Below are positions 42,659 to 57,689 of a DNA stretch of 64,000 nt, one piece after another. Positions within the stretch are counted from its first letter, which is position 1; the number at the start of each line of letters is the position of its first letter. This DNA comes from Planctomycetota bacterium (lineage in GTDB: Bacteria > Planctomycetota > UBA1135 > UBA2386). Location of the stretch: the NCBI GenBank assembly GCA_965223545.1, contig OZ245006.1:6304001-6368000 (forward strand), given 5' to 3'. The notes under the pieces are model-generated. The model was not told where the DNA came from. It was given only the letters and a program-made list of their open reading frames with translations, and searched no databases. The position numbers and the translations under genes were made by a program.

Positions 42659-43813
42659 TCAGCGAGCGTGGCGCGGCGGCGGCGCATCGTCGGCCGCGGC
42701 GCCGTCGATCGCGCGCTGCAGTTCGCCGCGCACGGCTGGGTCCGGTTCGCGCTCGAGGGCGGTGTGCAGCGCGCGCGCGCCGGGGTCGACGCGACCCAGT
42801 GCCCAGGCGGCGTGGCCGCGGACCACGGGGTCGGCGTCGGCCAGGGCGTTGGCCAGCGCCTCGGCCGCTCCGTCGGGACGCAGGTTGCCGAGCACGACCG
42901 CGGCGTTGCGCCGCAGCCCGCTGCGAGTCGCGCGCCGCATCGCCGTGCCCACCCAGTCCCGCTGGTATTCGTCTTCAGAGAGGGCGAGCACGTCGAGCAG
43001 GGCGTAGTCCTCGACCACGGCGTGCGGCCGTAGATCCGCTGGCGGCGTCGAAGACGGCTGCGCCGCGCGCCCCTTGCTGGTGAACGGGCACACCTCCAAG
43101 CAGATGTCGCAGCCGAACAGCCACTCGGCCTGCGCCGCCCTCAGCGGCTCGGGGATCGCTCCGCGCAGCTCGATGGTGGTGTAGCTGAGGCACTGCCGGG
43201 CGTCGACCTCGAACGGTGCGACGATGGCGCCCGTCGGGCAGGCGTCGAGACAGCGCGTGCAGGTGCCGCAGCTGCCCGCCGCGGGTGGGTCCGGCTCCAG
43301 CGCGAGCGGGGTGAGCAGCTCGGCGAGCAGCAAGTAGGGGCCATGGGTGGGCGAGATCACGCCGCTGCTCTTCGCCAGAAAGCCGATCCCGGCCCGTGCG
43401 GCGAGCGCCCGCTCGAGGACCGGCACCGCGTCGGTGCCCGCCTTGATCGTGCCGAGCGGCACGCCCTCCCGCTCCAGGGCGGTCCGCAGCCGCCGGGCGG
43501 CGCCGCCCAGCGAGCGGTGGTAGTCACGGCCCCGCGCGTAGCGTGCGATCCGGGCCCCGCCCGCCAGCTCCGCCGGCGGACCGCCGTAGTCGCGCGCCAG
43601 CGCGATCGCGCTGCGCGCCCCTGGCGCAAACGCCCGCGGATCGACGATGCGGTCCCGGTTGCGCCGCAGGTAGTCCATCTCGCCGTGCCGGCCCGCCTCG
43701 AGCCACCTGGCAAAGCGCGCGCTGTCCTCGCCCACCTCCGCGGGCCCAAAGCGCACTAGGTCAAACCCGAGGTCCGCCGCCATCGCGCGGACCTTCGCCG
43801 GAGACAGCCCCAT
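42659..43813 (-). CDS. queG: Epoxyqueuosine reductase
   Basis: 'YARGRDYH', 'PVLER', CGTCTRCLDACP, 'FGCDICLEVCP', 'RRNAAVVLGN', HEAT repeats. Confidence 0.95.
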   Translation of the reverse strand: MGLSPAKVRAMAADLGFDLVRFGPAEVGEDSARFARWLEAGRHGEMDYLRRNRDRIVDPRAFAPGARSAIALARDYGGPPAELAGGARIARYARGRDYHRSLGGAARRLRTALEREGVPLGTIKAGTDAVPVLERALAARAGIGFLAKSSGVISPTHGPYLLLAELLTPLALEPDPPAAGSCGTCTRCLDACPTGAIVAPFEVDARQCLSYTTIELRGAIPEPLRAAQAEWLFGCDICLEVCPFTSKGRAAQPSSTPPADLRPHAVVEDYALLDVLALSEDEYQRDWVGTAMRRATRSGLRRNAAVVLGNLRPDGAAEALANALADADPVVRGHAAWALGRVDPGARALHTALEREPDPAVRGELQRAIDGAAADDAPPPRHAR

Positions 43814-43822
43814 CCCCCGAAA

Positions 43823-43854
43823 GTACGGAGTCCCGCTCGATTTTCTCGCTTCGC
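43823..43854 (-). promoter_or_regulatory. Second copy of the 32-bp motif, just upstream of queG
   Basis: Reverse complement reads GCGAAGCGAGAAAATCGAGC-gg-GACTCCGTAC. Confidence 0.55.
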
Positions 43855-44049
43855 CCGCGGCCCACGTCGCGCCCGCCCCCGCGGTGCCCGCCAACCCCGT
43901 CGATACGGGAAATTCGCGGCACAATGGGGTTTCACGGCGCCGATGACCCCGCGGCTGACAGCAGCGGAGGGGTTACTACCGGTGGAACCCCAGCTATGGC
44001 AACATGGTGCCCTGGCCGGCCCCGGTGGCCGGCACGGGTCCCTTCCCCG

Positions 44050-44839: not shown

Positions 44840-45937
44840 ATGAAGTCTCCTTTCCCGTTCTCTGGCGCGGGCGCCGGTGGTCCGCACACCGACGAGTCGC
44901 GTCGCGCGCCGCATGCGGTGGGGCGCGATGATGCGCCGTGTGAGCGGATCCAGCTCGACCTGTCGGCGATGATCGACGGTGAGTTGGACCCCTCTGCCGT
45001 GCGCCGCGTGTTGGTGCACGCGGATGCGTGTCCCGCATGCCGCGGCTTCCTCAACGGCATCCGCGGCCAGCTGCGCGCGCACCGCGCGATCGCCGGGGTC
45101 GAGCCCCGTGCGGATGGGGCAGAGTGGGATGACGGCTGGGGCGACGTGCCGGATCGCACGCATCAGATCCGCGACCGGCTGCTGCACAACCGCCGCCAGA
45201 TGGCGCGCATTTTGTACACTCTCGGTCGCAGTCACGTGCTGATGGGCACCTCGCCCGCGTTCACCCGCGAGGTGGCCGAGGAGCCGGTGCCGATCCCCGA
45301 CGTCGAGCAGCGGGGGCGGGCGCTGTTGGCCGAGCTCGAGTGCTACGGCCCCGAGGTCGAATGGGTGCCGGCCAAAGAGCTGTTCGCCTCGCACGGCGAG
45401 CGGAGCGCCAGCGACAACCTCGCGCGCGGAATGCGTCTGCTGCGCGAGGCGCTGCAACTCGATGCCGACTTGCACGAGGCGCGGATCTATCTCGGCCACG
45501 CCCTGCATATCTTCGGCGAGCGCGACGAGGCGAGGGACGAGTTCGCCCGCGTGCTGCGCCACGCCAGCGACGCGCTGGTAATCGGCTTCGCCACGATCAA
45601 CCTCGGCAATGTCTTCCTCGAGGAAGGCGATGTTGCCGCGTCGATTCCCTATTTCGAGCGCGTCGTCGAGCTCGGTCTCGTGGCGGCTGAGCCCCGGTTC
45701 TTCACGGCCTACTTCAACCTGGCGCTGGCCCACGGCTTGCTGGCCAGGTTTGATTCCGCCGAGCGGTGGTTCCACCGTCTCTACGACGAGTTCCCGCACA
45801 AGCGCCGGCTGGTGGGGATCGAGATCGGCAAGCGCCGCTTGTTGGGCGCGGCGATCGACCGGCGCGCGGGGCAGCGACAACGCTGGGCGGCCGCGTTCCC
45901 GGAGTGGTTTTCGGTTGCAGGTGAGGTGCAGCAGTGA
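44840..45937 (+). CDS. Anti-sigma factor-like protein: zf-HC2 zinc finger plus TPR repeats
   Basis: C...'LSAMIDGEL'...HxxxCxxC ('HADACPAC'); TPR helices; immediately follows the ECF gene. Confidence 0.8.
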   Translation: MKSPFPFSGAGAGGPHTDESRRAPHAVGRDDAPCERIQLDLSAMIDGELDPSAVRRVLVHADACPACRGFLNGIRGQLRAHRAIAGVEPRADGAEWDDGWGDVPDRTHQIRDRLLHNRRQMARILYTLGRSHVLMGTSPAFTREVAEEPVPIPDVEQRGRALLAELECYGPEVEWVPAKELFASHGERSASDNLARGMRLLREALQLDADLHEARIYLGHALHIFGERDEARDEFARVLRHASDALVIGFATINLGNVFLEEGDVAASIPYFERVVELGLVAAEPRFFTAYFNLALAHGLLARFDSAERWFHRLYDEFPHKRRLVGIEIGKRRLLGAAIDRRAGQRQRWAAAFPEWFSVAGEVQQ

Positions 45938-46459: not shown

Positions 46460-48492
46460 GCCGAGTAGCCGCGGGGGGTTGCCCCCCCGCAGCTCTCACA
46501 GAACCGGACTTGTGGGTCACACATCCGGCTCTTCAGGACGGTATCCCCCAAAGGGGCCGCCAGTCGTAGCGGCGCTCGTCCCAGAGCTTGGAAAGCGACA
46601 CCAGCCGCTCAGCAAACCACTGATTGGGATAAGCGCGTTTGATCGCTCCCGAGTTGCTCTGCCACCACGTGCCACGCCGGCCAAACGCGGTGCGTGCAGC
46701 CGACTGCCAGCTGCACCCACGGGCGACAAGGTCTCGGAAGAGGTATCGCGGTCTCTTCTTCTGCCGAATGATGATCGCCCGCAGGCGTCGTCGAATATGG
46801 CCATCGAGATTCCGCAAGGTCCGCCACGCGGCCTTCGTGATCAGCTTGAAGTAGCCGATCCAACCACGGAGGTAACGGTTCAGTCGTTCGATGCACCAGG
46901 ACAGCCGACCACCCCAGGACCGCGGCGTAAGCTCACGGATTCGGGCGTCGATGCGATCCAGAGTGCGACGGGACAACTGCACCGTCAGCCAGCCCTTTCG
47001 AGTTGCGCCTACGCGAAACCCGAGGAAGTGCCGGCGATGGGCCAGGTCGACGGAACTCTTCGCTTCGTTCACTTTCAGTCGCACGCGACGTTCGATGAAC
47101 CTGCGAATCGAAGCCATGACCCGGTGTCCTGAGCGCTCGCTACCGACGTAGATATTGCAGTCGTCGGCGTAGCGCACAAAACGCAACCCGCGTCGTTCCA
47201 ACTCCCAGTCCAGTTCGTCCAGGACGATGTTGGACAGCAGAGGTGATAGCGGGCCGCCCTGGGGCGTTCCTTCTTCCGTGATGACGCGGGTGCCATCTGG
47301 AAGAACCACGTTCGCTTTCAGCATCAGGCGGATGATCCGCAGCACCCGACGGTCCTTCACCTTCTGAGCCAGCCGGTCCAGGAGGCGTTGGTGATGGACA
47401 CGGTCGAAGAACTTCTCCAAATCGATGTCCACCGTGTACCGCCGACCCTGCTTCACGTAACCCGCTGCTTCGGCGATCGCTGTGTGGGCTCCCCGCCTCG
47501 GCCGGAAGCCGTGGCTGCTGTCGTGGAACGTCGGGTCGTAGATCGGCTCCAGAATCTGGCGCACGGCCTGTTGGACCCAGCGGTCGATCACGGTTGGAAT
47601 CCCGAGACCCCGCTGCCCACCACTGGGCTTCGGGATCCACACCCGACGAATATCGCCGGGCGCGTAGGTCTCCATGAGCAGAGCATCGCGGAGTTTCGGG
47701 AGCAGGTGTTTCGCATGACGCTTGACCTCTGACACCGTCTGTCCGTCGACGCCCGGGGCGCCCTTCTTGCTTACGACATGTGCCAGTGCGCTTCGCAGGT
47801 TGCCCTGCTCCGCGACCAGCTCCAGCAGATGGCAGTAGCCGTCCGCTGGCGGCGGAGCCGATTCCGATCGATGGCTGCAATCCGTCGTAGGCACCGACGT
47901 GGACTTCGTGGCAGATTCGTCTGCCCTTCCGGCCACGCCGTCCCCTTGCGGGCTCTCGGCGAAAGCGAACTGCAGTTGCCGTGGTTTCGGCTTTCTCATC
48001 CTGTCACCCCCTTCGCTCCACCGGCATTACCCGGCTTCATCACTACTACGGGGTGATCCGACTTCTCTGCATGCCTTGGTGGGTCGTCGTTGCCTCCTCC
48101 CCACCTACCGCTCGAAGCGGACACACAGAGATCTCCCTGGGTAAGAACGCAGAGTTTCGCGCCGCCGCCGGTTCCAGTACTCCGAGGTCGCGACTGGATA
48201 TCGGGCGTCACGTTGGATGGCACGCTGACCCAGACCTCGAGAGCCTTACGGAACTTCGCTTTCGCTCGGTGCTGCGCTGCGTCTAGGGCTTCCATCCCAC
48301 ACGACCTCGCGGGAACAGCACGGCACGGTGTCCGTCCTGTTCTGGCATCCCGGATCAACACCGCGCACCGCCCTCTCGGACGGCACACGGCTCCCCTTTC
48401 TGCCTCGTGCAGCTGCCTTCGACTCATGGTTTCCTCCAGTACGGATCCATAAAGAACTTTCATCTTCAACTCTGCGCCCATGCCAGGCGCAA
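46460..48492 (-). mobile_element. Group II intron (class C-like), copy 1, 2033 nt
   Basis: 5' TTGCGCCTGGCATGGGCGCAG; DV GAGCCGGATGTG...GTCCGGTTC; DVI with bulged A; ends ...CTACTCGGC; boundaries from three-copy comparison. Confidence 0.92.
46533..47999 (-). CDS. ltrA: Group II intron reverse transcriptase/maturase (no En domain)
   Basis: 'KGAPGVDG', 'IPKPSGGQRGLGIPT', 'GTPQGGPLSPLLSN', YADD, 'LRGWIGYF'. Confidence 0.95.
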   Translation of the reverse strand: MRKPKPRQLQFAFAESPQGDGVAGRADESATKSTSVPTTDCSHRSESAPPPADGYCHLLELVAEQGNLRSALAHVVSKKGAPGVDGQTVSEVKRHAKHLLPKLRDALLMETYAPGDIRRVWIPKPSGGQRGLGIPTVIDRWVQQAVRQILEPIYDPTFHDSSHGFRPRRGAHTAIAEAAGYVKQGRRYTVDIDLEKFFDRVHHQRLLDRLAQKVKDRRVLRIIRLMLKANVVLPDGTRVITEEGTPQGGPLSPLLSNIVLDELDWELERRGLRFVRYADDCNIYVGSERSGHRVMASIRRFIERRVRLKVNEAKSSVDLAHRRHFLGFRVGATRKGWLTVQLSRRTLDRIDARIRELTPRSWGGRLSWCIERLNRYLRGWIGYFKLITKAAWRTLRNLDGHIRRRLRAIIIRQKKRPRYLFRDLVARGCSWQSAARTAFGRRGTWWQSNSGAIKRAYPNQWFAERLVSLSKLWDERRYDWRPLWGIPS

Positions 48493-48764: not shown

Positions 48765-50797
48765 GCCGAGTAGCCGCGGGGGGTTGCCCCCCCGCAGCTC
48801 TCACAGAACCGGACTTGTGGGTCACACATCCGGCTCTTCAGGACGGTATCCCCCAAAGGGGCCGCCAGTCGTAACGGCGCTCGTCCCAGAGCTTGGAAAG
48901 CGACACCAGCCGCTCAGCAAACCACTGATTGGGATAAGCGCGTTTGATCGCTCCCGAGTTGCTCTGCCACCACGTGCCACGCCGGCCAAACGCGGTGCGT
49001 GCAGCCGACTGCCAGCTGCACCCACGGGCGACAAGGTCTCGGAAGAGGTATCGCGGTCTCTTCTTCTGCCGAATGATGATCGCCCGCAGGCGTCGTCGAA
49101 TATGGCCATCGAGATTCCGCAAGGTCCGCCACGCGGCCTTCGTGATCAGCTTGAAGTAGCCGATCCAACCACGGAGGTAACGGTTCAGTCGTTCGATGCA
49201 CCAGGACAGCCGACCACCCCAGGACCGCGGCGTAAGCTCACGGATTCGGGCGTCGATGCGATCCAGAGTGCGACGGGACAACTGCACCGTCAGCCAGCCC
49301 TTTCGAGTTGCGCCTACGCGAAACCCGAGGAAGTGCCGGCGATGGGCCAGGTCGACGGAACTCTTCGCTTCGTTCACTTTCAGTCGCACGCGACGTTCGA
49401 TGAACCTGCGAATCGAAGCCATGACCCGGTGTCCTGAGCGCTCGCTACCGACGTAGATATTGCAGTCGTCGGCGTAGCGCACAAAACGCAACCCGCGTCG
49501 TTCCAACTCCCAGTCCAGTTCGTCCAGGACGATGTTGGACAGCAGAGGTGATAGCGGGCCGCCCTGGGGCGTTCCTTCTTCCGTGATGACGCGGGTGCCA
49601 TCTGGAAGAACCACGTTCGCTTTCAGCATCAGGCGGATGATCCGCAGCACCCGACGGTCCTTCACCTTCTGAGCCAGCCGGTCCAGGAGGCGTTGGTGAT
49701 GGACACGGTCGAAGAACTTCTCCAAATCGATGTCCACCGTGTACCGCCGACCCTGCTTCACGTAACCCGCTGCTTCGGCGATCGCTGTGTGGGCTCCCCG
49801 CCTCGGCCGGAAGCCGTGGCTGCTGTCGTGGAACGTCGGGTCGTAGATCGGCTCCAGAATCTGGCGCACGGCCTGTTGGACCCAGCGGTCGATCACGGTT
49901 GGAATCCCGAGACCCCGCTGCCCACCACTGGGCTTCGGGATCCACACCCGACGAATATCGCCGGGCGCGTAGGTCTCCATGAGCAGAGCATCGCGGAGTT
50001 TCGGGAGCAGGTGTTTCGCATGACGCTTGACCTCTGACACCGTCTGTCCGTCGACGCCCGGGGCGCCCTTCTTGCTTACGACATGTGCCAGTGCGCTTCG
50101 CAGGTTGCCCTGCTCCGCGACCAGCTCCAGCAGATGGCAGTAGCCGTCCGCTGGCGGCGGAGCCGATTCCGATCGATGGCTGCAATCCGTCGTAGGCACC
50201 GACGTGGACTTCGTGGCAGATTCGTCTGCCCTTCCGGCCACGCCGTCCCCTTGCGGGCTCTCGGCGAAAGCGAACTGCAGTTGCCGTGGTTTCGGCTTTC
50301 TCATCCTGTCACCCCCTTCGCTCCACCGGCATTACCCGGCTTCATCACTACTACGGGGTGATCCGACTTCTCTGCATGCCTTGGTGGGTCGTCGTTGCCT
50401 CCTCCCCACCTACCGCTCGAAGCGGACACACAGAGATCTCCCTGGGTAAGAACGCAGAGTTTCGCGCCGCCGCCGATTCCAGTACTCCGAGGTCGCGACT
50501 GGATATCGGGCGTCACGTTGGATGGCACGCTGACCCAGACCTCGAGAGCCTTACGGAACTTCGCTTTCGCTCGGTGCTGCGCTGCGTCTAGGGCTTCCAT
50601 CCCACACGACCTCGCGGGAACAGCACGGCACGGTGTCCGTCCTGTTCTGGCATCCCGGATCAACACCGCGCACCGCCCTCTCGGACGGCACACGGCTCCC
50701 CTTTCTGCCTCGTGCAGCTGCCTTCGACTCATGGTTTCCTCCAGTACGGATCCATAAAGAACTTTCATCTTCAACTCTGCGCCCATGCCAGGCGCAA
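48765..50797 (-). mobile_element. Group II intron (class C-like), copy 2, 2033 nt
   Basis: Same ends as copy 1, offset 2305 bp; SNPs at 48874 and 50476 relative to copy 1. Confidence 0.92.
48838..50304 (-). CDS. ltrA: Group II intron reverse transcriptase/maturase
   Basis: Protein identical to copy 1 in the ORF track. Confidence 0.95.
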   Translation of the reverse strand: MRKPKPRQLQFAFAESPQGDGVAGRADESATKSTSVPTTDCSHRSESAPPPADGYCHLLELVAEQGNLRSALAHVVSKKGAPGVDGQTVSEVKRHAKHLLPKLRDALLMETYAPGDIRRVWIPKPSGGQRGLGIPTVIDRWVQQAVRQILEPIYDPTFHDSSHGFRPRRGAHTAIAEAAGYVKQGRRYTVDIDLEKFFDRVHHQRLLDRLAQKVKDRRVLRIIRLMLKANVVLPDGTRVITEEGTPQGGPLSPLLSNIVLDELDWELERRGLRFVRYADDCNIYVGSERSGHRVMASIRRFIERRVRLKVNEAKSSVDLAHRRHFLGFRVGATRKGWLTVQLSRRTLDRIDARIRELTPRSWGGRLSWCIERLNRYLRGWIGYFKLITKAAWRTLRNLDGHIRRRLRAIIIRQKKRPRYLFRDLVARGCSWQSAARTAFGRRGTWWQSNSGAIKRAYPNQWFAERLVSLSKLWDERRYDWRPLWGIPS

Positions 50798-51034
50798 CAT
50801 CACCATCAGCGCCGGTCCAAGGCGAGGCACAGGGTGCGACCGACGCCGATGGTGACGGAGCTGCGGGCGGCGGTCCCGGTCGTGATGGGTAGGAGAGCAG
50901 CTCGGGCGCCTGAGCCGCAGGTCGCGGAATCAAGAGCGGGTGTTTCGTCGCGGAGTGGCGCGCACTCGCTTCAGCTCCGTCACCGTCGGCGGCGGTCGCA
51001 CCCCGTGCCTCGTCTTGGACCGCCGTCGTCGGTG

Positions 51035-53067
51035 TTGCGCCTGGCATGGGCGCAGAGTTGAAGATGAAAGTTCTTTATGGATCCGTACTGGAGGAAACCA
51101 TGAGTCGAAGGCAGCTGCACGAGGCAGAAAGGGGAGCCGTGTGCCGTCCGAGAGGGCGGTGCGCGGTGTTGATCCGGGATGCCAGAACAGGACGGACACC
51201 GTGCCGTGCTGTTCCCGCGAGGTCGTGTGGGATGGAAGCCCTAGACGCAGCGCAGCACCGAGCGAAAGCGAAGTTCCGTAAGGCTCTCGAGGTCTGGGTC
51301 AGCGTGCCATCCAACGTGACGCCCGATATCCAGTCGCGACCTCGGAGTACTGGAACCGGCGGCGGCGCGAAACTCTGCGTTCTTACCCAGGGAGATCTCT
51401 GTGTGTCCGCTTCGAGCGGTAGGTGGGGAGGAGGCAACGACGACCCACCAAGGCATGCAGAGAAGTCGGATCACCCCGTAGTAGTGATGAAGCCGGGTAA
51501 TGCCGGTGGAGCGAAGGGGGTGACAGGATGAGAAAGCCGAAACCACGGCAACTGCAGTTCGCTTTCGCCGAGAGCCCGCAAGGGGACGGCGTGGCCGGAA
51601 GGGCAGACGAATCTGCCACGAAGTCCACGTCGGTGCCTACGACGGATTGCAGCCATCGATCGGAATCGGTTCCGCCGCCAGCGGACGGCTACTGCCATCT
51701 GCTGGAGCTGGTCGCGGAGCAGGGCAACCTGCGAAGCGCACTGGCACATGTCGTAAGCAAGAAGGGCGCTCCGGGCGTCGACGGACAGACGGTGTCAGAG
51801 GTCAAGCGTCATGCGAAACACCTGCTCCCGAAACTCCGCGATGCTCTGCTCATGGAGACCTACGCGCCCGGCGATATACGTCGGGTGTGGATCCCGAAGC
51901 CCAGTGGTGGGCAGCGGGGTCTCGGGATTCCAACCGTGATCGACCGCTGGGTCCAACAGGCCGTGCGCCAGATTCTGGAGCCGATCTACGACCCGACGTT
52001 CCACGACAGCAGCCACGGCTTCCGGCCGAGGCGGGGAGCCCACACAGCGATCGCCGAAGCAGCGGGTTACGTGAAGCAGGGTCGGCGGTACACGGTGGAC
52101 ATCGATTTGGAGAAGTTCTTCGACCGTGTCCATCACCAACGCCTCCTGGACCGGCTGGCTCAGAAGGTGAAGGACCGTCGGGTGCTGCGGATCATCCGCC
52201 TGATGCTGAAAGCGAACGTGGTTCTTCCAGATGGCACCCGCGTCATCACGGAAGAAGGAACGCCCCAGGGCGGCCCGCTATCACCTCTGCTGTCCAACAT
52301 CGTCCTGGACGAACTGGACTGGGAGTTGGAACGACGCGGGTTGCGTTTTGTGCGCTACGCCGACGACTGCAATATCTACGTCGGTAGCGAGCGCTCAGGA
52401 CACCGGGTCATGGCTTCGATTCGCAGGTTCATCGAACGTCGCGTGCGACTGAAAGTGAACGAAGCGAAGAGTTCCGTCGACCTGGCCCATCGCCGGCACT
52501 TCCTCGGGTTTCGCGTAGGCGCAACTCGAAAGGGCTGGCTGACGGTGCAGTTGTCCCGTCGCACTCTGGATCGCATCGACGCCCGAATCCGTGAGCTTAC
52601 GCCGCGGTCCTGGGGTGGTCGGCTGTCCTGGTGCATCGAACGACTGAACCGTTACCTCCGTGGTTGGATCGGCTACTTCAAGCTGATCACGAAGGCCGCG
52701 TGGCGGACCTTGCGGAATCTCGATGGCCATATTCGACGACGCCTGCGGGCGATCATCATTCGGCAGAAGAAGAGACCGCGATACCTCTTCCGAGACCTTG
52801 TCGCCCGTGGGTGCAGCTGGCAGTCGGCTGCACGCACCGCGTTTGGCCGGCGTGGCACGTGGTGGCAGAGCAACTCGGGAGCGATCAAACGCGCTTATCC
52901 CAATCAGTGGTTTGCTGAGCGGCTGGTGTCGCTTTCCAAGCTCTGGGACGAGCGCCGCTACGACTGGCGGCCCCTTTGGGGGATACCGTCCTGAAGAGCC
53001 GGATGTGTGACCCACAAGTCCGGTTCTGTGAGAGCTGCGGGGGGGCAACCCCCCGCGGCTACTCGGC
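51035..53067 (+). mobile_element. Group II intron (class C-like), copy 3, 2033 nt, inverted
   Basis: TTGCG at 51035; DV 52996-53026; ends CTACTCGGC at 53067; SNPs at 51670, 51770 and 51878. Confidence 0.92.
51528..52994 (+). CDS. ltrA: Group II intron reverse transcriptase/maturase
   Basis: One amino-acid difference (ESAPP to ESVPP) from copies 1 and 2. Confidence 0.95.
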   Translation: MRKPKPRQLQFAFAESPQGDGVAGRADESATKSTSVPTTDCSHRSESVPPPADGYCHLLELVAEQGNLRSALAHVVSKKGAPGVDGQTVSEVKRHAKHLLPKLRDALLMETYAPGDIRRVWIPKPSGGQRGLGIPTVIDRWVQQAVRQILEPIYDPTFHDSSHGFRPRRGAHTAIAEAAGYVKQGRRYTVDIDLEKFFDRVHHQRLLDRLAQKVKDRRVLRIIRLMLKANVVLPDGTRVITEEGTPQGGPLSPLLSNIVLDELDWELERRGLRFVRYADDCNIYVGSERSGHRVMASIRRFIERRVRLKVNEAKSSVDLAHRRHFLGFRVGATRKGWLTVQLSRRTLDRIDARIRELTPRSWGGRLSWCIERLNRYLRGWIGYFKLITKAAWRTLRNLDGHIRRRLRAIIIRQKKRPRYLFRDLVARGCSWQSAARTAFGRRGTWWQSNSGAIKRAYPNQWFAERLVSLSKLWDERRYDWRPLWGIPS

Positions 53068-53307
53068 ACGGTGCTGAGGCGAGCCTTCAGCTCTGGAGCT
53101 GGAGGTGGTGTGAGCTCTGCGTTTCGCAGGGCGCGCGCTCCATCGGCCTCTGGATCGTGAGCGGGCGGTGGTCACGGTCCTCGGAGCTTGGGGGTTTGGC
53201 TTGGACTGAACGGAGAAAAAACGTGCGAACTGCTGACAGGTTTCACGAGTTTCCTTTTGTCGGATTCTTGCATGCTGACTCGCTCTCTAGTAAGGTCGCT
53301 AATTCAA

Positions 53308-54006
53308 ATGACGAGCAAGACGGTTGGGGCGCGGTGCGGGGGACGACGCCGTGGGGTGGTGCAGGGCGAGCTGCCGTTTCGGCAGTGGGGTGGGGCTCGG
53401 GAGGGGGCTGGGCGGCCCAAGGTGAGTGACGAGACGGTGCCGCACTTGGCGCGGGGGGCGTTGGTGGCGCGGTATCCGTTGCACTTGACGGTGCGGTTGT
53501 GTCGGGGGTTGCCGGGCTTACGGAATGCGCGGACGTACTGGATGTTGGTGGAGCGGATCCGGGCGGGGTGTGGGCGGTTCGGGTTTCGGTTGGTGGAGTT
53601 CTCGGTGCAGCGTGATCACTTGCACCTCTTGGTCGAGGCGAAGGATCGGGAGGCGTTGACGCGGGGGATGACCGGGCTGTTGGTGCGGATGGCGCGGGGG
53701 TTGAACAAGTTGTGGGGGCGCTCGGGGCGGGTGTTTGCCGAGCGGTTTCACGAGCGGGTGCTGCGCTCGCCGACGGAGGTGCGGCGGGCGTTGGTGTATG
53801 TGCTGCAGAATGCCTGGCACCACCGGCAGCGGCCGCGGCAGTTGATCGACGTCTACTCGTCGGGGCCTTGGTTCGACGGGTGGCGCGAGGTGGTGGAGTT
53901 GTCGGAGCCGGTGGTGCGGCCGACGGTGCGGGCGCGAACGTGGCTGCTCAAGGGAGGGTGGCGGCGGTCGCGGGGACGGTTGGACTTCCGCGAGCGGCCG
54001 GCGTAG
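53308..54006 (+). CDS. RAYT-like (Y1 HUH, IS200-superfamily) tyrosine transposase
   Basis: 'LHLTVR', HUH motif 'DHLHLLVE', 'VFAERFH', catalytic Tyr in 'ALVYVLQN', 'YSS'; adjacent hairpin array; no tnpB. Confidence 0.85.
   Translation: MTSKTVGARCGGRRRGVVQGELPFRQWGGAREGAGRPKVSDETVPHLARGALVARYPLHLTVRLCRGLPGLRNARTYWMLVERIRAGCGRFGFRLVEFSVQRDHLHLLVEAKDREALTRGMTGLLVRMARGLNKLWGRSGRVFAERFHERVLRSPTEVRRALVYVLQNAWHHRQRPRQLIDVYSSGPWFDGWREVVELSEPVVRPTVRARTWLLKGGWRRSRGRLDFRERPA

Positions 54007-56324: not shown

Positions 56325-56331
<7 letters not shown>
55084..56331 (+). CDS. FG-GAP/VCBS repeat protein
   Basis: Seven 'D[LI][DN]xDGxxD' repeats; signal-like N-terminus; start uncertain. Confidence 0.85.

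Positions 56332-57689
<1,358 letters not shown>

Follow-up and report, generated by a model that had tools for sequence, protein, structure and literature searches.

Can a group II intron give up the G with which it begins, and if so, does the base near its other end change with it? The first and penultimate bases of these introns touch one another, a contact that the relevant parts of PMC4238363 and PMC3669008 treat as established. That contact has been defined by mutagenesis, and G1 has been treated as nearly invariant. The question is raised by an intron in a 64,000-nucleotide stretch of a Planctomycetota genome (assembly GCA_965223545.1, contig OZ245006.1, positions 6,304,001 to 6,368,000, forward strand), hereafter called the window. 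The original prediction for this locus was that U1 and the penultimate G (position n-1) form a compensatory pair in an apparently mobile intron and that these ends, together with an atypical catalytic core, mark one sub-lineage.

The intron and its exact boundaries

The element is a group II intron of 2033 nt with 14 near-identical full copies in the genome, and all 14 have the ends UUGCG...CUCGGC, that is, UUGCG...GC in place of the GUGYG...AY boundary of group II introns. The three copies in the window each start with TTGCG and end with CTACTCGGC, as predicted, and the other genomic copies are alike. The further claim that the flanks diverge right after the terminal C does not hold for two of the three, which have their 3' flank in common. 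The features of the first copy and its surroundings are as follows.

51035..53067, +: full-length group II intron of 2033 nt, one copy among 14 (genome copies, empty-site comparison)
51035..51039, +: 5' end UUGCG, U1 replacing G1 (empty sites; alignment with relatives)
51092..51096, +: AGGAA, a candidate for the IIC-type epsilon' motif (motif position; definition in part of PMC1702495)
51211..51381, +: domain I stretch, Rfam RF02001 (group-II-D1D4-3; 73 bits, E 1.2e-12)
51308..51311, +: EBS1 CAUC, predicted partner of IBS1 GRUG (covaries with IBS1 in relatives)
51350, +: EBS3 (C), predicted partner of the first 3' exon base
51468..51470, +: J2/3 GGA, gamma = G (GGA in all 25 aligned rows examined)
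51528..52994, +: intron-encoded RT/maturase (IEP), 488 aa, YADD (TIGR04416, 373 bits, cut-off 300)
52996..53026, +: domain V (DV), 31 nt, with AGC triad, AA bulge and 5-nt loop
52997..52999, +: AGC triad of DV
53030..53064, +: domain VI (DVI); its bulged branch-point A53061 lies six bases ahead of the 3' end
53066..53067, +: penultimate G (A expected) and terminal C (gamma')
50965..51034, +: 5' exon, the palindrome from its 5' arm through the loop into the 3' arm; IBS1 GGTG at 51031-51034
53068..53083, +: 3' exon, remainder of the target palindrome 3' arm
48765..50797, -: second copy of the intron; target palindrome from the same family as for the first
46460..48492, -: third copy of the intron; target palindrome again from the same family
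53188..54006, +: Y1 (HUH) transposase-like gene, RAYT-like, start codon uncertain

The RF02001 match is found in each of the three window copies (71-73 bits), and a Pfam search of the RT/maturase returned RVT_1 and GIIM only, with no endonuclease domain. Neighboring host genes encode a QueG-like epoxyqueuosine reductase (42659-43924, -), a zinc-finger plus TPR protein (44840-45937, +) and a glutamine synthetase (56325-57689, -).

The 12 copies of 2033 nt differ from one another at 0-6 nt; the other two are one base longer, and in them the protein match stops three residues early. The RT/maturase frame is intact in 12 of the 14. When the flanks of each copy were rejoined by script and compared with empty copies of the target repeat, the alignment was gapless at the junction for 13 of the 14, and for three of these (copies 1, 8 and 12) the rejoined flanks were 100% identical to empty repeats over 120 nt. 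The remaining copy, at C1:2458668, is without an empty homologue. The empty repeats thus pin both junctions to the base and indicate precise insertion without duplication. A G precedes U1 in all 14 copies, so that a 5' junction at GUUGCG, which had been named as the finding that would overturn the prediction, was looked for against the empty sites; it is excluded, because a one-base slide in either direction fails to restore the empty sequence. The preceding G is present in the empty sites as well and is the last base of IBS1, and the motif CAUGG begins at intron position 11, as it does in relatives with G1. DNA contigs from other studies carry the intron between different flanks: X5 and X7 span the 5' junction, X7 also spans the 3' junction, and neither has a change listed at 51035 or 53066. 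In total, the near-identical copies and the empty sites indicate that the intron is real, has recently multiplied and, as had been suspected, has recently been mobile.

Catalytic core and lineage

Is the rest of the ribozyme as unusual as its ends? Read by homologous register, DV has the predicted 31 nt, AGC triad, AA bulge and UGACC loop on a short GUG/CAC upper stem (plain minimum-free-energy folding draws a 4-bp upper stem instead). GGA was likewise located in J2/3, where gamma = G fits the terminal C. An AGC triad with (G)GA in J2/3 is the usual triplex combination of IIA and IIB introns, and the core is therefore self-consistent. Group II membership is supported by DV, DVI with its bulged A, a domain I core, the RT/maturase frame and precise insertion. 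Of the features in the definition of IIC introns, which according to part of PMC1702495 include a short DV and an epsilon' AGGAA, the intron has the shortened distal stem of DV, predicted EBS1/IBS1 and EBS3/IBS3 pairings, and AGGAA by motif. The triad is AGC where class C has CGC, and the IEP falls outside the class C clade, in a separate sister clade. With regard to EBS2/IBS2, bases -12 to -5 take 8 forms over the 14 sites, as would fit the absence of this pairing in IIC introns. Class C introns insert directly behind a terminator or another stem-loop; here a hairpin is present, but the intron lies within its 3' arm, and there is no U-tract. Judged by these predicted features, the intron works like a IIC intron but departs from class C in its triad and in the clade of its IEP.

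A protein search with the IEP returned 79 loci. Five of the six best matches have the AGC triad, a short upper stem, the AA bulge, a G start and a GAC end; the sixth lacks the intron 3' end, and the remaining loci have the CGC triad. A DV pattern derived from the best protein matches was then applied to metagenomes, where it found at least 119 loci, and to 401 genomes of the phylum, of which 9 matched including the intron's own (8 of 400 others). Because the pattern was built from introns having both AGC and AA, these two features are selected by it in its matches; independent of the pattern are three plasmid introns from the protein search, with an AGC triad and an AU bulge. Among close relatives of the host, 4 of 60 other genomes have an IEP match, all 46-49% identical. 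Viral contigs gave 0 matches to the short-DV pattern and 78 to a pattern with penultimate G, only 1 of them with an RT upstream.

In our trees, one of the three being a quick tree, the short-DV introns form one clade that is sister to the CGC introns (SH-aLRT 94-100 and 0.999), the class C rows being labelled from their CGC triad and not from a curated set. Proteins of fewer than 440 residues, L155 (a long branch), L244 (a duplicate) and L118 were dropped from one tree and from the AU test described below. Since the short-DV introns form one clade, the "atypical" core is the normal state of a broad group, 27 of whose 30 members with both ends read are G1/A(n-1). The idea that ends and core jointly mark one sub-lineage is accordingly not supported. 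The clade seems to be widespread and may be unnamed. The IEP lies outside classes G (g1: Rh.js.I1, Sr.me.I2) and F (g3: Ni.ha.I1) of Toro 2013 in the tree, the unclassified Rh.sp.I1 of the same source falls outside the intron's clade, and a literature search for class G with an AGC triad found no paper. For the classification we drew on parts of PMC3552965 (with Table S2), PMC4244168, PMC8919778, PMC4748821, PMC3753933, PMC5894124, PMC8643678 and PMC12584367.

Two side observations come from the same scans. Long-DV matches (L102, L113, L145, L158, L178 and others) belong to a distant clade with an AGC triad, an AA bulge and often a very long DVI; they make up 51 of the 134 DV matches listed and were excluded from the tally of ends. 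At L114 and L200, an intron 3' end is followed directly by another intron start, GUGCG, a tandem insertion.

Covariation of the first and penultimate bases

The last three bases of the 83 short-DV matches listed are GAC in 69, GGC in 5, GAT in 3, GCC in 2, and GGG, GAG and AGC in 1 each, with 1 uncalled. Both ends could be read in 27 loci among the matches listed, 24 of them G1/A(n-1) and 3 U1/G(n-1), the latter being the window intron, L107 and L156. (The ends of L006 were assigned by hand, and L240/241 and L243/244 are near-duplicates within this tally.) Adding the three plasmid copies, all G1/A, brings the lineage to 27 G1/A(n-1) versus 3 U1/G(n-1), with no mixed case among the matches listed; the nominal Fisher p for the association is 2.5e-4, the rows not being independent. 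Complementarity of EBS1 and IBS1 backs the U1 junctions in the two relatives (L107, CCUC/GAGG; L156, GCGU/GCGC). Positions 1 and n-1 are the sole ribozyme columns that separate the three U1 rows from all 24 G1 rows, and a search of RNA columns and protein residues for a compensating third-site change that follows the U1 rows found none.

Do the three U1 introns simply share an ancestor? Three trees make L136, a G1/A intron, the sister of L156; the L156 IEP is 68% identical to that of L136 and 51% to that of the window intron, and the L156 RNA is 77.5% like the former and 60.6% like the latter. The IQ-TREE AU test rejects a single clade for the U1 rows (deltaL 220, p-AU 0.001, from 2000 replicates, below the number that the program advises). 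Taken together, trees, AU test and RNA similarity set L156 apart, and we infer that the double change arose at least twice. The proposal that U1 and G(n-1) covary thus held up, in three rows and two independent origins. There are exceptions at position n-1, and the pair may therefore be less than strict: L162, in the window intron's own small clade, ends in GCC with its 5' end missing, and L247 also ends in GCC. Separately, L201 and L190 have a DV and DVI very like those of L243 and L244, yet end in GGC (L201) and AGC (L190) versus GAC (L243), a possible further origin of the end change.

Class C provides a control. Among 155 distinct DVs with a CGC triad, 149 have A at n-1, 2 end in GGU and 4 are uncalled or miscalled. 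For 88 CGC-triad loci there was enough upstream DNA to look for the 5' end, and no U1 was seen among them: 60 read G1/A (48 automatically, 12 by eye), 2 have G1 but lack a 3' end, ten have no motif call, and the rest are without a match to the 5' profile, apart from L407 and L339. L407 (minus strand, open 465-residue frame) starts CUGUG and is C1...GGU; judged by eye, GUGG/CCAC could plausibly be its EBS1/IBS1 pairing. L339 (identical to L258; minus strand, open 487-residue frame) is G1...GGU and is a counterexample; its 5' end departs from consensus too, and it may be decaying or an intermediate. Seven other class C introns (L347, L357, L360, L393, L404, L408 and L346) start GUUUG or GUUCG by register and could be misread as UUGCG.

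Target palindromes and Y1 transposase genes

Where does the intron insert? Thirteen of the 14 copies interrupt palindromes of non-coding DNA. On the intron sense strand these form long hairpins with many G-T pairs, and the insertion points are staggered GRTG motifs in the 3' arm. The bases before U1 are GATG in 9 sites and GGTG in 5, all complementary to EBS1 CAUC (a predicted pairing), and IBS3, with which the 3' exon opens, is G in 12 copies and A in 2, the copy at 51035-53067 being one of the two. Folding of the rejoined target site gave -43.7 kcal/mol (z -8.6 versus 40 shuffles). We found 26 palindromes of this family, 13 occupied (three of them assigned by eye) and 13 empty. The fourteenth copy, C1:2458668-2456636, lies outside the repeat family, with a GGTG/G match and only a weak hairpin.

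Comparison of coordinates groups 22 of the 26 palindromes into nine clusters next to a Y1 transposase gene and puts one beside a truncated Y1 copy; the arrays stand upstream of the gene in alternating orientation. The RAYT-like gene has 12 full copies in the genome, mostly 92-95% identical, plus the truncated one; its profile scores are 25.4 bits for PF01797 (cut-off 23) and, for NF047646, E 9.5e-9 and 35 bits against a cut-off of 80. Since divergence among the introns is much lower than among the Y1 genes, the intron would have spread later than the gene. The other three palindromes lie inside a 1.45-kb, three-copy ISL3 element, upstream of its transposase (L455, G000:C1:2607059-2608501; near C1:3675035; near C1:5061510). 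Two of the three element copies hold the intron at the identical base, and passive duplication may account for these two introns, as it may for the tandem pair in the window. The sense of the leading strand is shared by 10 of the 14 copies, a bias that is not significant (p 0.09). Many introns of relatives lie in hairpin arms, several without a significant hairpin; no Y1 gene was found beside them in the loci searched, all of which are short.

A probable pyrimidine-G pair in place of the G-A contact

Based on the natural covariation of the ends, its two origins and the C1/G(n-1) intron in class C, we think it likely that a non-Watson-Crick pair between a pyrimidine at position 1 and G(n-1) substitutes for the G1/A(n-1) contact, and that this is why U and G replace G and A at the first and penultimate positions of this recently multiplied 14-copy intron of a class C sister clade. 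In this mechanism the pair would act where that contact is required, in step two of splicing and in step one of its reversal. Reverse splicing by the RNP would be into hairpins of single-stranded DNA, with four target bases read by EBS1 (CAUC/GRUG) and one by EBS3. As for the order of events, we speculate that n-1 went from A to G before G1 gave way to a pyrimidine, the earlier change being tolerated.

Several observations count against a pair: the G1/G(n-1) intron L339, the GCC ends of L162 and L247, and the small sample, the lineage having 3 U1 rows from 2 origins. In addition, G1 contacts the branch helix and a maturase lysine in step one, according to passages of PMC10733145; these contacts would be lost, and no offsetting third-site change was found. 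Of the predicted compensatory pair, then, the repeated double change stands, L339 runs counter to it, and the mechanism is our reading of the sequences.

Could each end change instead be tolerated on its own, the two being found together by common descent or by chance, with no compensating pair? L339 combines G1 with G(n-1) once, C is found at n-1 in L162, in L247 and in RmInt1 (part of PMC4238363), and the numbers are small; because RmInt1 is mobile with that C, the first-to-penultimate contact must have some tolerance. The same source, as far as its relevant part goes, places the RmInt1 mutant with G1 and G(n-1) among those most impaired in step two. Against separate tolerance, the four non-G1 starts found (the window intron, L107, L156 and L407) all have G(n-1), versus A(n-1) in 87 of the 88 G1 starts with a called 3' end among the matches listed; the U1 rows are not one clade by the AU test; and the intron UHB.I2 repeats the pattern in another class (part of PMC7923331). 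We regard this explanation as unlikely, if the best of the alternatives.

A second alternative accepts the pair but assigns it mainly to mobility, that is, to the way the 3' end of the lariat docks when the intron reverse-splices into a DNA hairpin, with forward splicing of little consequence for copies in non-coding repeats. The location of 13 of the 14 copies in non-coding palindromes fits, as does the fact that the first step of reverse splicing has the same chemistry as the second step of forward splicing. No lariat can move, however, until forward splicing has released it, and both uses of the pair are therefore expected; we hold a role mainly in mobility to be quite improbable. It is scarcely credible that the RNA is really spliced at shifted positions (say, at GUUGCG) or that the ends are assembly errors: a G does precede all 14 copies, but it belongs to IBS1 and to the empty sites, sliding the junction fails to give back the empty sequence, CAUGG keeps its register with G1 relatives, and contigs of other studies carry the same ends.

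How far does the pyrimidine-1/G(n-1) pair extend? More tentatively, and with slightly less than even confidence, we posit that it is a general alternative boundary code that has repeatedly replaced G1/A(n-1) in unrelated lineages, a counterpart of the spliceosomal swap from GU-AG to AU-AC, seen here in an unnamed sister class of IIC that would combine a IIC-sized DV with an AGC/GGA triplex and home to palindromes beside Y1 genes. If so, the 14-copy intron is a ready, recently mobile model for the geometry of the pair.

Significance and relation to known systems

Independent natural double swaps, including one in an intron that only recently reached its 14 sites, lend phylogenetic support to the contact, and they constrain its geometry, with G-A replaced by U-G or C-G. 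They also make a four-construct rescue test possible. On the practical side, boundary finders based on GUGYG...AY will miscall such introns. Among the papers listed by our search of the literature on group II boundaries, none was described there as treating U1/G(n-1) covariation; Chanfreau and Jacquier 1993, Simon et al. 2008 and Costa et al. 2016, the last reportedly on lariat structures, may mention natural introns with these ends.

With class C introns (B.h.I1, O.i.I1, the E. rectale intron), the window intron shares the short upper stem of DV, AGGAA, a 4-bp EBS1/IBS1, a one-base EBS3, an RT/maturase without an endonuclease domain and insertion at DNA hairpins, and its IEP is about 46% identical to the class C rows. 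Unlike them, it has AGC with J2/3 GGA (versus CGC), a terminal C and the U1/G(n-1) ends; its clade has a 4-5-nt non-GNRA DV loop and an IEP in a separate sister clade; and the sites that it targets are in long palindromes, on the 3' arm, where no U-tract is present.

RmInt1, of class D, starts with G. It is mobile and has a 3' end that departs from AY, according to part of PMC4238363, but it ends in CC, and it is not known to have a compensating 5' change.

The prediction had allowed that these ends might already be common in a described subclass. U1 with penultimate G is in print once, in another class: UHB.I2, a group IIB1 intron with a CL1 IEP, has the ends 5'-UUGCG..GU-3' (passages of PMC7923331). 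It differs in its RNA and IEP class and is known there from one metagenomic copy beside an attC site; the authors note the ends as a deviation, without a reading as covariation in the relevant passages.

Plasmid introns annotated only as ltrA, from S. meliloti SM11 pSmeSM11b (NC_010865.1), Novosphingobium pSA2 and an R. leguminosarum Vaf-108 plasmid, belong to the lineage of the window intron, those of pSmeSM11b and pSA2 being placed in the short-DV clade by the tree. All three share with it 55-57% IEP identity, a short DV with the AGC triad and a terminal C; they differ in starting with GUGUG, ending in GAC and having an AU bulge.
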